64,000 nt of DNA from an uncultured Chloroflexia bacterium (GTDB lineage: Bacteria > Chloroflexota > Dehalococcoidia > DSTF01 > WHTK01), in the NCBI GenBank assembly GCA_963731765.1, contig CAVSWS010000004.1:26670-90669 (forward strand), in the 5' to 3' direction. The translations under genes were made by a program, and so were the position numbers. The notes under the pieces were generated by a model. It saw only the letters and a list, made by a program, of their open reading frames with translations. It was not told where the DNA came from and ran no database searches. This document shows positions 43,923 through 51,488 of the stretch, one piece after another; the first letter of the stretch is position 1; each line of letters starts with the position of its first letter.

Positions 43923-45128
43923 ATGGCTGACTTCAACCCCTTCGACCCACGTCTGCGCACCGACCCGTACGAGGTCTATCGCGAGCTGCGCGAGGAGGCG
44001 CCGGTGTTCTGGAGCCAGATGATGCACGTGTGGGTACTGACCCGCTACGACGACATCTTCGAGGCGCTGAAGGACCACAGGCGCTACTCCTCCGAGCGAA
44101 CGCGGTCGACGAACCCGCTGGTGCAGCAGCTGGAGAACTACCGCATGAGCTCGGGGCCGCTGGGCACGACGCCGACGATGCTGAGCATCGACCCGCCCGA
44201 CCACACCCGCATGCGCAGCCTGGTGAGCAAGGCGTTCACGCCGCGACAGGTCGAGCGCGTGCGGCCGCACATGCAGGAGATCGCCGAGGAGCTGCTGGAC
44301 GCGCTGCCGGAGCCGGGTCGCATGGACGTCATGGCAGACTTCGCGGTGCCTTTCCCGATCATCGTCATCGCCGAGATGCTGGGCGTGCCGGCGGGAGACC
44401 GAGCGCAGTTCAAGGCATGGTCGACCGACATTGCGGCGACGCTGGGCGGTCCGTTCCAGCCGCAGGAGGTGCTCGAACGCTCCGTGCGGGCTTCGAACGA
44501 GCTGGCGGATTACTTCCGGGGTCAGATCGCCCAGCGGCGAGCCGAGCCGCGCGACGACCTGCTCAGCGCCCTCTGCGCCGTCGAGGAGCAGGGCGACCTG
44601 CTGAGTGAGGACGAGCTAATCGCCACCTGCATTCTGCTGCTGGTGGCGGGCAACGAGACGACGACGAACCTGATCGGCTCCGGCATGCTGACGCTGCTGA
44701 AGAACCCGGACGAGCGTCGCAGGCTGCAGGCCGACCTCTCGCTGATGCCGAGCGCCATCGAGGAGATGCTGCGCTACGAGCCGCCCGCCCAGATGACCTC
44801 GCGCATCGCCGTCGAGGAGATCGAGCTGCGCGGCAGTCACTTCGAGCCGGGGCAGGTGGTGTTGACGGCGCTGGCGGCGGCGAACCGCGACCCGGAGGTC
44901 TTCCCGGACCCGGACCGCTTCGACATCACGCGCCAGCCGAACCGGCACCTGGCGTTCGGGCACGGTATCCACTACTGCCTCGGTGCGCCGCTGGCCGTGG
45001 TCGAGGCACGCATCGGCTTCGAATCGCTGCTGCGCCGCATGCCGGAGCCGGAAGCCGCCTTCGAGGCGCCGGCATGGGGTCAGTCGTTCGTGCTGCGGGG
45101 GCTGAAGTCGCTGCCTGTGACGTACTGA
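43923..45128 (+). CDS. Cytochrome P450
   Basis: DPPDHTRMR, I-helix VAGNETT, EEMLR, heme motif FGHGIHYCLG. Confidence 0.97.
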   Translation: MADFNPFDPRLRTDPYEVYRELREEAPVFWSQMMHVWVLTRYDDIFEALKDHRRYSSERTRSTNPLVQQLENYRMSSGPLGTTPTMLSIDPPDHTRMRSLVSKAFTPRQVERVRPHMQEIAEELLDALPEPGRMDVMADFAVPFPIIVIAEMLGVPAGDRAQFKAWSTDIAATLGGPFQPQEVLERSVRASNELADYFRGQIAQRRAEPRDDLLSALCAVEEQGDLLSEDELIATCILLLVAGNETTTNLIGSGMLTLLKNPDERRRLQADLSLMPSAIEEMLRYEPPAQMTSRIAVEEIELRGSHFEPGQVVLTALAAANRDPEVFPDPDRFDITRQPNRHLAFGHGIHYCLGAPLAVVEARIGFESLLRRMPEPEAAFEAPAWGQSFVLRGLKSLPVTY

Positions 45129-45185
45129 GGTTCTAGCAACCCAGCCCACGAGCAAACAAAGATCGGGCTAAGAACCAGAGCGCCC

Positions 45186-45908
45186 TTAGAGCTTCGGACC
45201 GCCAGGCCTTCGTGACAGCTCCGCGAGGTGCTCCCAGTCGTGCTCCAGGATGCGGCGGAGGCCCTTGCGTAGCGTGCGCAGGTCGTTGGGGCGTTGGACG
45301 ACAACGCTTCGTTGCTCTGCGGTGGCTGCGTGCAGCCGTTCGGCCACGATGGCGGTCGATCGCCGGAGAGCCTCCGCGATGGGGAGCTGACCGCGCTCTG
45401 CCTGCGTGTGAAGGCTGGAAATGCCGGAGATGGTGCCGAGCACGGGCGAGAGGAAACCGCCTGTTGGCCCGAGGACGTGCAGCAGGATGGTCGTTGCACT
45501 GCGACTGCTGCCCGGCACCATCGCATCGAGAATGGCGGCATCGGCGGCTTCGGCCCAGACAGCGATCTCCTCGCGCAGGCAGGTCATGCGACTCGTAAGC
45601 ACGCCCAGCTCAGCCTCCGAGACGGGCTCGTAGTCCGGCGTGAATATGAGGTACGGGGAGCCGTTGCCCAGCCAGTCGCCCTGTGTGATGTGCTCCTCGA
45701 CATGCGTCGTGAAAGGCGCGTCAGGATCGACGCCTTCGCCGCAGCGCCGGAGGAACCGCAGGTACGCCGCGATGGCCTCGGGCGCGTTCTCGATCGCCTC
45801 TTCCGTAGTGGGGCCGACCGCGACGCAGCCCAGCAGGTCGAGGGCGTGCACCATCGTCTTGCGACGCTTCGGGCCCGACTCGAGATAGAGGGCGTAATCG
45901 GTGGTCAC
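45186..45908 (-). CDS. HicB-like N-terminal domain fused to DinB-like C-terminal domain
   Basis: LDLLGCVAVGPTTEEAIENAPEAIAAY; ILLHVL ... ILEHDWEHLAEL. Confidence 0.65.
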   Translation of the reverse strand: MTTDYALYLESGPKRRKTMVHALDLLGCVAVGPTTEEAIENAPEAIAAYLRFLRRCGEGVDPDAPFTTHVEEHITQGDWLGNGSPYLIFTPDYEPVSEAELGVLTSRMTCLREEIAVWAEAADAAILDAMVPGSSRSATTILLHVLGPTGGFLSPVLGTISGISSLHTQAERGQLPIAEALRRSTAIVAERLHAATAEQRSVVVQRPNDLRTLRKGLRRILEHDWEHLAELSRRPGGPKL

Positions 45909-48239: not shown

Positions 48240-48366
48240 CAGTATCTCCGTTCCGTATGAGCCCGTCGAGTGGGCCGGATGCTGGGAGCTGCCCTCGCCA
48301 TCAGCCGTATAGTGTTAGCCAGGCTCAGCAATTGTTCGAGGCGAACTCGTTGTTGAGCACAGTCGC

Positions 48367-48394
48367 AGTTTAGAACGCATGTACGATCTGTCAA
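48367..48394 (-). promoter_or_regulatory. recA promoter with LexA box in the spacer
   Basis: TTGACA-N16-TAAACT; GAAC-GCAT-GTAC at 48373-48384. Confidence 0.8.
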
Positions 48395-48410: not shown

Positions 48411-48674
48411 ATGGATTCCTGCCTGATCCGCGTACGGGTGACGCCGCGCTCCGGTCGCGACGAAGTGATCGGCTGGCAGGACGGCGAGCTGCGGGTGCGC
48501 GTGCGTGCGGCGCCGGTGGAGGGGCAAGCCAACGAAGCGCTGTGCCGCCTGATCGCGAAGCAGGCCGGCGTGCCATATTCAGCCGTCGAGGTCGTCAGCG
48601 GCGGGACAGCTCGCGTGAAGACGCTGCGGGTCTCGGGGATAAGTGAGGCTGAGGTGCGGTCGAGACTGGGGTAA
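48411..48674 (+). CDS. yggU: DUF167/YggU family protein
   Basis: RVRVTPRSGRDEV...VRVRAAPVEGQANEAL...GGTARVKTL. Confidence 0.9.
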   Translation: MDSCLIRVRVTPRSGRDEVIGWQDGELRVRVRAAPVEGQANEALCRLIAKQAGVPYSAVEVVSGGTARVKTLRVSGISEAEVRSRLG

Positions 48675-50526: not shown

Positions 50527-50560
50527 GACGTGCCCAGCATAGCGTTTGTGTTCTAACGGG

Positions 50561-50851
50561 TCACCGCGTCCGCGGATCGATGCGATCGCTGTCGTCCGGG
50601 GGCGGCAGGCCATGCTTGCTGCGCTGGTACTCCCATTTCGAGAGAAGGGTGAGGACGGCGATGGTGGCAAGAATGACGGCGAACCCCAGCCACATGCTGG
50701 CGGCAAAGGCGTAGAGCGCGACGATTACGCAGACGACGCCGCCGAGAATGAGCAGCATTGGCACCAGGAGAATGCGCGCGATCATGCGCGAGATTACGAG
50801 AGCCTGCAAACAGCCGTTGGGCTCCTTCGGGGGCGGTATGCGGTGCTGCAT
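50561..50851 (-). CDS. Small two-TM membrane protein (96 aa)
   Basis: Two hydrophobic helices flanked by Pro-rich charged ends. Confidence 0.7.
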   Translation of the reverse strand: MQHRIPPPKEPNGCLQALVISRMIARILLVPMLLILGGVVCVIVALYAFAASMWLGFAVILATIAVLTLLSKWEYQRSKHGLPPPDDSDRIDPRTR

Positions 50852-50886
50852 GTTTCCCGAAGGATAACGCCGGGCGCGCCGTGCTC

Positions 50887-51009
50887 CTAGCGCCGGCGGG
50901 TGCCGCCGCAGATCACGCAGCGGAACCAGCTCTCGCCTCGCACGACAGGGCCGCCACAGTCGGGGCAGCGTGCGCCGTTGGGTCGCTGAATGATGCGTCG
51001 TCGGGTCAT
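50887..51009 (-). CDS. 40-aa zinc-ribbon micro-protein
   Basis: SD GGAGG; MTRRRIIQRPNGARCPDCGGPVVRGESWFRCVICGGTRRR*; below the ORF-track cutoff. Confidence 0.7.
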   Translation of the reverse strand: MTRRRIIQRPNGARCPDCGGPVVRGESWFRCVICGGTRRR

Positions 51010-51031
51010 CTGAGTGCCTCCACGTCCTTAA

Positions 51032-51079
51032 GGACGTTTGTTCTAATGTCAGATTATGTTTGCATTAGAACGGGCGTTC
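51032..51079 (-). promoter_or_regulatory. Two LexA (SOS) boxes upstream of the zinc-ribbon gene
   Basis: GAAC-GGGC-GTTC at 51068-51079 (overlapping TTGACG on the minus strand) and GGAC-GTTT-GTTC at 51032-51043. Confidence 0.72.
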
Positions 51080-51123
51080 GTCAAGCGATCCGGTGAGGAA
51101 TTTAGAACAAAATAGCTAAGAGG

Positions 51124-51240
51124 TTATTCGGCGAGCCAGGCGGAGAAGTCGCGGATGCGGTCGAGCACGCGCTGCAGGCGCTCCGGGTCGGAGATGAAGA
51201 GGACGGACGTGATCAGGACGGCGACAAGAACCTCAGCCAT
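51124..51240 (-). CDS. 38-aa single-TM micro-protein
   Basis: MAEVLVAVLITSVLFISDPERLQRVLDRIRDFSAWLAE*; ATG 6 nt after TAAACT; GC3-rich codons. Confidence 0.6.
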   Translation of the reverse strand: MAEVLVAVLITSVLFISDPERLQRVLDRIRDFSAWLAE

Positions 51241-51302
51241 AAGCGCAGTTTAGCACCAGGCTCAATGCCCGATTCTGCGCGATGCCCTTTATGATGCGGA
51301 CG

Positions 51303-51488
51303 ATGGGCGGTCTGATCCTGCTGATGCTGGCCAGCTTCGTGGTCCTTTTGCCGTTTGTGTGGCTGCGCAAGCCCTGGGCCGTTGCGATCTGGCGCAGGGC
51401 CAAGCTGATCGGCATGCTTTACGCGCTGATCATCCTGCTCTCCGCCATCGTCCGGCTCGCGTTCAACTGGAATGACATCTACGGCTAG
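51303..51488 (+). CDS. Small two-TM protein (61 aa)
   Basis: ATG 7 nt after TATGAT; MGGLILLMLASFVVLLPFVW...LYALIILLSAIVRLAF. Confidence 0.65.
   Translation: MGGLILLMLASFVVLLPFVWLRKPWAVAIWRRAKLIGMLYALIILLSAIVRLAFNWNDIYG

Follow-up and report, generated by a model that had tools for sequence, protein, structure and literature searches.

A predicted LexA-type-regulated zinc-ribbon micro-protein gene, zr40, upstream of yggS-proC-yggT in an uncultured lineage of Chloroflexota

The gene described here, zr40, lies on the minus strand (51009-50887) of a 64-kb stretch of DNA from an uncultured Chloroflexia bacterium (assembly GCA_963731765.1, contig CAVSWS010000004.1, positions 26,670 to 90,669; hereafter the window, whose own numbering is used throughout) and encodes a C4 zinc-ribbon micro-protein of 40 amino acids. 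It is preceded by orf38 (51240-51124, minus strand), from which it is separated by a 114-bp spacer, and is followed after a gap of 35 bp by tm96 (50851-50561, minus strand), an open reading frame (ORF) for a 96-residue membrane protein with two helices. A gap of 34 bp then leads to yggS (50526-49849, minus strand), which encodes a pyridoxal-phosphate-binding protein (Pfam PF01168) and has proC and yggT after it. Further along, the plus-strand gene yggU (DUF167; start at 48411) lies between yggT and recA (48239-47160, minus strand), and recA is followed by recX. Beyond orf38, and on the plus strand, another two-helix membrane ORF, orf61, runs from 51303, or in a longer version (orf68) from 51282, to 51488 and overlaps the start of the glycerate kinase gene (glyK) at 51472. 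An earlier interpretation made from the letters of this DNA (the sequence-only reading) had picked out a 96-residue gene with two transmembrane segments, 38- and 61-residue ORFs and a yggS-proC-yggT neighbourhood, all of which are present. Our analysis indicates that zr40 is a previously uncharacterised micro-protein gene, predicted to be regulated through LexA-type operators as part of the SOS response to DNA damage.

The zr40 product, MTRRRIIQRPNGARCPDCGGPVVRGESWFRCVICGGTRRR, is hydrophilic and basic, has no hydrophobic segment and carries a net charge of +8, with arginine-rich ends around the zinc ribbon. The sequence-only reading had described a 40-residue ORF with the pattern CxxC-x13-CxxC; the ORF is real and conserved, but the spacing between the cysteine pairs is twelve residues (CxxC-x12-CxxC). 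Using genome, metagenome and contig look-ups, we collected 17 related loci (L001-L017) that represent about 13 distinct lineages. They come from metagenomes of soil, sediment, sludge and wetland, their labels name two Chloroflexota metagenome-assembled genomes ("uncultured Chloroflexia bacterium" and "Dehalococcoidia bacterium"), and one zr40 orthologue is carried on a 2.48-Mb contig. The orthologues in the 17 loci are 63-95% identical, all four cysteines and the motif RCPDCGGP being invariant, and their pairwise differences are distributed over the first, second and third codon positions as 359, 212 and 689, with 533 synonymous codon differences. Judged by this substitution pattern, zr40 is under clear purifying selection and is a real, conserved gene. 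Protein searches returned just seven clusters, all of 40-41 residues. As for the claim that such genes are invisible to standard annotation, it is correct for zr40 in this genome, whose assembly leaves the exact product uncalled, but not for the neighbours orf38, orf68 and tm96, which are called as genes, nor for orthologues elsewhere, which are annotated as hypothetical proteins, one of them labelled "UPF0148 family" by JGI.

No family in Pfam or NCBIfam was matched above its cut-off by zr40, and PADLOC gave no match. The score against PF06677/UPF0148 was 21.3 bits, below the gathering cut-off of 24.1, and that against HVO_0416 was 17.1 bits, for a cut-off of 80. The AlphaFold2 model is a zinc ribbon of four short strands (mean predicted local distance difference test score, pLDDT, 72.6), for which a Foldseek search of the PDB found ribosomal and RNA-polymerase zinc ribbons as the nearest, non-significant, structures (E 0.38 or worse), while a search of PDB sequences gave weak zinc-finger matches only and no phage or plasmid match was found. 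PF06677/UPF0148, the HVO_0416-type archaeal zinc-finger micro-proteins and the FmdB family, whose functions are diverse or unassigned, resemble zr40 in being single zinc ribbons, 40-60 residues long, with CxxC knuckles in pairs; unlike zr40, for which such a link is predicted, none of them is linked to the SOS response.

Most of what can be said of zr40 regulation comes from its promoter, which, as predicted from the sequence, has one LexA-type site filling the spacer between the -35 and -10 hexamers and another just past the -10. The -35 element, TTGACG (51084-51079, minus strand), gives its last G as the first base of box 1 (51068-51079; GAACGGGCGTTC, or GAACGCCCGTTC in minus-strand spelling), a perfect GAAC-N4-GTTC that lies within the 17-nt spacer leading to the -10, AAACAT (51061-51056, minus strand). 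Box 2 (51032-51043; GGACGTTTGTTC, minus-strand spelling GAACAAACGTCC) departs from the palindrome by one mismatch and would cover about +7 to +18 of the predicted transcript. It is followed by a conserved Shine-Dalgarno sequence, GGAGG (51017-51021, minus strand), 7 nt ahead of the zr40 ATG at 51009. The sequence-only reading is thereby confirmed in its report of a perfect box overlapping a TTGACG -35 (the two share the G at 51079), of a second, one-mismatch box upstream of the gene, and of a strong Shine-Dalgarno sequence. An alternative -10, CATAAT, lies 3 nt downstream of AAACAT and would make the spacer 20 nt long.

When the orf38-zr40 spacers of the related loci are aligned (alignment A3), the mean column identity is 42%, and TTGAC, (G)AC-N4-GTTC, the A..AT of the -10, TAGAACA..CGT, GGAGG and ATG are invariant or nearly so; TTGAC is also kept in further loci outside A3. 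Both boxes occupy the same position in all 17 related loci. Box 1 is perfect in every one but L002, where it has GTAC, and box 2 is itself perfect (GAACAGACGTTC) in L015 and L016, which thus carry two perfect boxes. Orthologous -10 elements, 16-18 nt from the -35, read TATAAT (L017), TATACT (L011), GATAAT (L007) and GACAAT (L008 and L010). A further half-site, box 3 (51097-51108; TTTTGTTCTAA), lies about 20 nt upstream of the -35 in the window and is seen also in L003, L004, L005, L008, L010, L011 and L015; in L003 and L005 it is one mismatch short of a full box, and it is missing from L001, L006 and L007. Since it is found in only about two thirds of the lineages, box 3 could be either a degenerate third operator or an A+T-rich, UP-like element. 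The 5' untranslated region contains a hairpin, ACGUCC-UUAA-GGACGU (51022-51037, minus strand; palindrome ACGTCCTTAAGGACGT), which extends from the right half of box 2 to the ribosome-binding site. Of 12 loci, 11 have a predicted hairpin with its anchor in the CGTC of box 2, and the stems differ in sequence from locus to locus (ACGUCC/GGACGU, GCGUCUCA/UGAGGCGC, CCGUAUG/CAUACGG), which points to selection on structure. In L011 and L013 the hairpin pairs with the ribosome-binding site. It might serve mRNA stability or the control of translation, or offer a further site for a protein. The leader and its surroundings match no known RNA family.

Counting alone would not have singled these boxes out. 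The window holds one perfect GAAC-N4-GTTC, namely box 1, where 0.82 are expected by chance and at least one is present in 58 of 100 shuffles, and the 13 one-mismatch boxes compare with 21.8 expected, which is no enrichment. A single perfect box is, on its own, not above chance; the signal is significant because of the placement of the boxes and their conservation across the related loci, not because of their number in the window. The heptamer GTTCTAA is found five times in the window, always in the recA promoter or between 50550 and 51108, for 1.4 expected, and five were reached in 2 of 100 shuffles. A weight matrix trained solely on orthologous box 1 sites returned, at a threshold of 10 bits, only box 1 (26.0 bits), box 2 (15.5) and a site in the recA promoter (13.6) from the whole 64 kb. 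The same matrix recovered box 2 and the recA promoter again in L001 and L003, and in L004 it found the recA promoter together with an operator ahead of an inserted gene, orf101, described below. Other candidate sites were rejected: a fourth GTTCTAA ahead of yggS (50550) is not kept in other loci, a perfect box at L003:3775 falls inside a coding region, and the box-like GTACTGAGGTTCTAG (45122-45136) falls between convergent genes, across the stop codon of one of them, which encodes a cytochrome P450, and probably arose by chance. The convergent gene that faces this last site (45186-45908) has a sub-threshold match to a HicB-like domain.

The recA promoter (48367-48394, minus strand) consists of TTGACA, a 16-nt spacer and TAAACT, and its operator, GTACATGCGTTC (48373-48384), sits inside that spacer, about 2.7 kb from zr40. 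That recA shares the zr40 motif had been claimed before, and it does, but in the window the site at recA is one mismatch away from the full box. The orthologous sites read GTACATTCGTTC in L003, the perfect GAACAGTCGTTC in L004 and AAACACTTGTTC in L001, and in four loci the operator lies within the -35/-10 spacer of recA. The presence of the same site in the recA and zr40 promoters predicts one operator type for both genes. Dehalococcoides LexA is reported to bind GAAC-N4-GTTC. The same sequence is the LexA site of Bacillus subtilis and Mycobacterium tuberculosis and, by extension, of Gram-positive bacteria (PMC3323433). The LexA-type boxes of the sequence-only reading can be described as a conserved double operator of the Gram-positive and Chloroflexi LexA type that lies within a canonical promoter and has a counterpart at recA. 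The yggU start at 48411 is close both to the -35 of recA (17 nt away) and to its operator (about 27 nt away), and LexA bound to this operator could also affect yggU transcription. The recA leader continues for about 120 nt past the -10 (48240-48366) and is for the most part kept in L003, an example being CTGGCTAACACTATA..CGGCTGATGGCGAGGGCAGC; it has no Rfam family match.

In most of the related loci the genes follow one order, with glyK and orf61 on one side, then orf38, zr40, tm96, yggS, proC and yggT, then yggU, and finally recA and recX. Exceptions are L004 and L009, in which about 1 kb is inserted between zr40 and tm96, and L002, from which orf38 is missing. In L015 and L016 orf38 and the boxed zr40 are kept, tm96 and yggS are not beside zr40, and the genes downstream of it are a MiaB-N-like fragment, a 232-residue gene, scpB and DUF503. 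These two loci belong to GCA_041484565.1 (L015:279-2400 and L016:1605-3747), where the orf38-zr40 pair has different neighbours, with an aldo-keto reductase gene upstream, and both operators are perfect. The insert of L004 (4989-5957; that of L009 is alike) contains orf101, an ORF of 101 residues and unknown family, and a dCTP-deaminase-like gene (PF22769, E 5e-34), both between zr40 and tm86. Directly ahead of these genes are a ribosome-binding site and a perfect operator of their own, CGAACGAGTGTTCTAA, and on account of this operator a nucleotide-pool enzyme has apparently been recruited to a zr40-type operator. A called ORF of 39 residues lies between yggS and proC in L011 and L012 (11156-11275 in each).

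The neighbouring micro-genes are conserved but differently controlled. Conserved features of the tm96 protein are an N-terminal KEPxGC, a proline within helix 1 and RWE following helix 2; its AlphaFold2 model is a helical hairpin with both ends charged and predicted inside; relatives number 17 matches in a word index and 34 representatives among 1.84 billion proteins. A Foldseek search with the tm96 model found nothing. We rejected an identification of tm96 as PspM or as holin-X, the matches being scattered and sub-threshold: those to PspM reached 19.8 bits (cut-off 80) and 17.2 bits (cut-off 27.7) and came from 1 of 26 family members. The orf38 product has a single hydrophobic helix at its N-terminus and a conserved helix that ends in WLAE, and its pairwise differences by codon position are 382/111/538; it stays beside zr40 in L016, where the other neighbours differ, and has GTG starts in L006, L007 and L010. 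It was also considered as a mini-TatA and rejected, with an hhalign probability of 0.4% against B. subtilis TatAd and no Pfam match. The corresponding differences for orf61 are 987/505/1131, with PFV.LRRPWAV and NWDDIYG conserved. All four micro-ORFs (38, 40, 61 and 96 residues) are, by their coding-type substitution patterns, conserved real genes, and none of the four products matches a described family, which agrees with the view of the sequence-only reading that the module is undescribed.

Each of the neighbours has a -10-like element immediately before its start. For orf38 it is an extended -10, TGcTAAACT (51247-51255), whose TGnTAnnnT pattern is kept 6-9 nt ahead of the start; as it lies just 6 nt before the ATG, the orf38 mRNA is probably leaderless. 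For tm96 it is TATCCT (50861-50866), 9 nt ahead of the start, and TATCCT or TATGCT stands 6-10 nt ahead in all loci. The start of orf61 at 51303 (M8 of the 68-residue version that begins at 51282) has TATGAT 7 nt before it (51290-51295), and TATGAT or TATCAT precedes M8 across the loci. For yggS, TATGCT (50536-50541) is kept as TATGCT or TATCCT 8-10 nt before the ATG. Thus orf38, orf61, tm96 and yggS all have a conserved TAnnnT 6-10 nt before the start and are without a ribosome-binding site, and the earlier impression that the 38- and 61-residue genes look leaderless is well founded. In high-GC bacteria, TAnnnT signals of this kind are a signature of leaderless transcription (PMC3160421), and the clade seems to rely heavily on leaderless mRNAs.

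These promoters bear directly on the proposal that the four genes form one SOS-controlled cluster, which we abandon. Since they have their own conserved TAnnnT and no ribosome-binding site, the neighbours appear to be separately promoted; the operators come after orf38 in the direction of zr40 transcription, and orf61 points the other way and is coupled to glycerate kinase. The gene zr40 is, on sequence features, the only one here with operators, a leader and a ribosome-binding site. No terminator was detected after zr40 or tm96, through to yggT, and given its own conserved -10, tm96 would be SOS-inducible by read-through alone. The "cluster" is therefore best described, as far as its signals can be read, as a single gene with boxes, set among small membrane genes that each have a promoter of their own.

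Comparison with established SOS systems shows both likenesses and differences. The palindrome core of the zr40 boxes is identical to that of Gram-positive LexA operators (the Cheo box; B. subtilis recA and the multi-box lexA-yneA region), and the arrangement resembles B. subtilis SOS promoters in having an operator in the -35/-10 spacer and another over the transcription start, several boxes at one gene and a box also at recA. Unlike Cheo-box promoters, the zr40 boxes have a one-sided conserved GTTCTAA flank, and unlike the lexA-yneA arrangement, zr40 is not divergent from lexA, none having been found in the 64 kb, and LexA binding here is predicted only. Known SOS division inhibitors are typically small and clade-specific (PMC6051672, PMC6851548). 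YneA (B. subtilis), ChiZ (M. tuberculosis), DivS (Corynebacterium glutamicum), SosA (Staphylococcus aureus) and SidA (Caulobacter) are, like zr40, small, restricted to their clade and without wider homologues, and they share the LexA repression that is predicted for zr40; the zr40 locus also resembles theirs in holding small membrane proteins, and adjoins ylmE/yggS and ylmG/yggT. Those inhibitors, however, are single-pass membrane proteins, some with LysM, that act outside the membrane, whereas zr40 is soluble, basic and predicted to bind zinc. Differing from them too, tm96 is a two-helix hairpin with its own promoter and no sequence similarity to any of them, and profile searches found neither LysM nor any other domain in zr40 or tm96. 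SulA of Escherichia coli, which is soluble, inducible and LexA-repressed behind a strong box, is like zr40 in its soluble nature and small size, and MciZ, from B. subtilis sporulation, is a 40-residue peptide, the same size as zr40. Like these two FtsZ inhibitors, zr40 could act in the cytoplasm, but neither is homologous to it or a zinc ribbon. The size class and two-helix hairpin topology of tm96 recall PspM (Rv2743c) and CrgA-type proteins of Actinobacteria, although the PspM match spans the membrane helices only and CrgA gave no match to tm96. Type I SOS toxins (TisB-, DinQ- or Hok-like) are hydrophobic peptides of under 60 residues that an antisense RNA represses; these traits were not found here, the boxed product being hydrophilic and basic and no RNA family or antisense promoter having been detected.

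We propose, with moderate confidence, that zr40 is a real and clade-specific member of the LexA (SOS) regulon in an uncultured soil and sediment lineage of Chloroflexota. The regulatory core of this proposal, that the zr40 promoter is under LexA-type operators, is a prediction that we regard as quite likely, whereas any specific effector function can be put forward only tentatively. In the mechanism that we envisage, LexA dimers on boxes 1 and 2, and perhaps box 3, would exclude RNA polymerase and hinder promoter escape, and would also stop read-through from the constitutive, leaderless orf38 promoter. After DNA damage, self-cleavage of LexA stimulated by RecA would free the zr40 promoter. Having two or three operators, one of them perfect, as against a single imperfect one at recA, zr40 is predicted to be repressed more tightly and induced later than recA. 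Tight repression and late induction are usual for products that are harmful when mistimed. As there is no terminator after zr40, induced transcripts should extend into tm96-yggS-proC-yggT, and this read-through would top up the basal expression of these genes from their own leaderless-type promoters.

Our leading guess at function is that zr40, a very basic and presumably cytoplasmic zinc ribbon, is induced by damage to put division or nucleoid handling on "hold", possibly with orf38 and tm96; a role as a nucleic-acid-binding accessory in repair or recombination is, speculatively, about equally likely. The stronger version, in which zr40 would be the first of a new class of SOS cell-cycle effectors that halts division or segregation together with orf38 and/or tm96, we consider unlikely. 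Hints of a connection to division or the nucleoid are the position of the zr40 unit directly upstream of yggS/ylmE and yggT/ylmG, the presence of scpB nearby in L015 and the persistence of orf38 beside zr40 where other neighbours differ; two published studies link YlmG/SepG to division and nucleoid organisation (PMC4852450, PMC2923531). Several observations weigh against the interpretation of zr40 as an SOS effector. A motif scan and a tblastn search, the latter with E. coli LexA as query, did not find lexA in the window or in the fetched loci. The -10 of the window, AAACAT, is at the weak end of the orthologous range, and a consensus promoter scan did not flag the promoter. The region itself was found in DNA metagenomes only; contigs from soil metatranscriptomes matched just the conserved parts of proC and yggS, in sequences of other organisms, and none matched zr40. 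The protein lacks a membrane segment, is not similar to SulA, YneA, ChiZ, SosA or SidA, and is more conserved than is usual for division inhibitors. The genes zr40 and tm96 need not stay linked (L004, L009, L015 and L016), and gene order kept within one narrow clade is weak evidence for a common function, since it may reflect ancestry.

An alternative that keeps the SOS control is that zr40 serves as a nucleic-acid accessory to repair or recombination, and not as a cell-cycle inhibitor, the membrane micro-proteins being unrelated neighbours. Its part could be to cover damaged DNA or to flag it or, like DinI, RecX or phage gp7, to modulate RecA or LexA. The +8 charge and the arginine-rich ends flanking the zinc ribbon would suit such a role, as would the nucleic-acid-contacting nature of the ribosomal and RNA-polymerase ribbons that are its closest, if non-significant, structural matches, weak sub-threshold profile matches to the zinc ribbons of DNA ligase, PriA and SprT, the distance of 2.7 kb from recA-recX in most loci that reach that far, and the neighbours' own promoters. 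Yet none of the zr40 matches reaches a family cut-off, orf38 remains adjacent where other neighbours change, and two or three operators suggest a product that is kept tightly off, which would be unusual for a harmless repair accessory. We regard this alternative as possible but doubtful. A simpler possibility, that the boxed promoter mainly serves yggS-proC-yggT and that zr40 is an incidental small ORF upstream, draws on the missing terminator between zr40 and yggT and on the conserved order zr40-tm96-yggS-proC-yggT. It is hard to reconcile with the purifying selection on zr40, its invariant cysteines and its own ribosome-binding site, with the separate promoters of yggS and tm96, or with the persistence of boxed zr40 without yggS-proC-yggT in L015 and L016, and seems to us exceedingly improbable.

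Two further alternatives change either the effector or the regulator, and both appear very unlikely. The effector could be tm96, as part of an SOS-induced membrane-toxin or holin-like module in the style of TisB, DinQ or a holin, with zr40 as its regulator or partner; its action would be to depolarise the membrane, induce dormancy or cause lysis. The tm96 product is a short hairpin of two helices whose ends are charged, 4 of its 26 family members weakly match an actinobacterial holin family (best E 9e-4), and tight repression fits a toxic product. The conserved, constitutive-type -10 of tm96, however, is unsuited to a toxin, its Pfam matches are scattered and below cut-off, and zr40 occurs without tm96 in L015 and L016; moreover, searches found neither an antisense RNA nor a phage gene, nor any homologue in plasmids or phages, and in most of the lineages that were examined the genes keep a stable order among housekeeping genes. 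Alternatively, the palindromes could be operators of a repressor other than LexA, in which case zr40 would not respond to damage. Both the failure to locate lexA in the window and loci and the conserved flank (GTTCTAA/TTAGAAC), which reaches past the classical 12-mer, would be consistent with this, but the core is exactly the GAAC-N4-GTTC site of LexA (PMC3323433), four lineages have this site in the spacer of the recA promoter, a third perfect copy stands ahead of the insert with the dCTP-deaminase-like gene in L004, and no other known regulator family has GAAC-N4-GTTC at recA.

To our knowledge, hardly any work has addressed the SOS response of Chloroflexota, and we know of no checkpoint effector for the phylum. 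The gene zr40 exemplifies a conserved micro-gene overlooked by the gene caller in this genome, and it is a compact candidate, comprising a 40-residue peptide that can be synthesised and a promoter of about 90 bp with two or three operators, which, having the same LexA box, should work in B. subtilis or mycobacteria. Should zr40 be a minor DNA-binding accessory, it would be a routine addition to the LexA regulon of one clade; if its role can be established, the set of known SOS effectors would gain a zinc-ribbon micro-protein.

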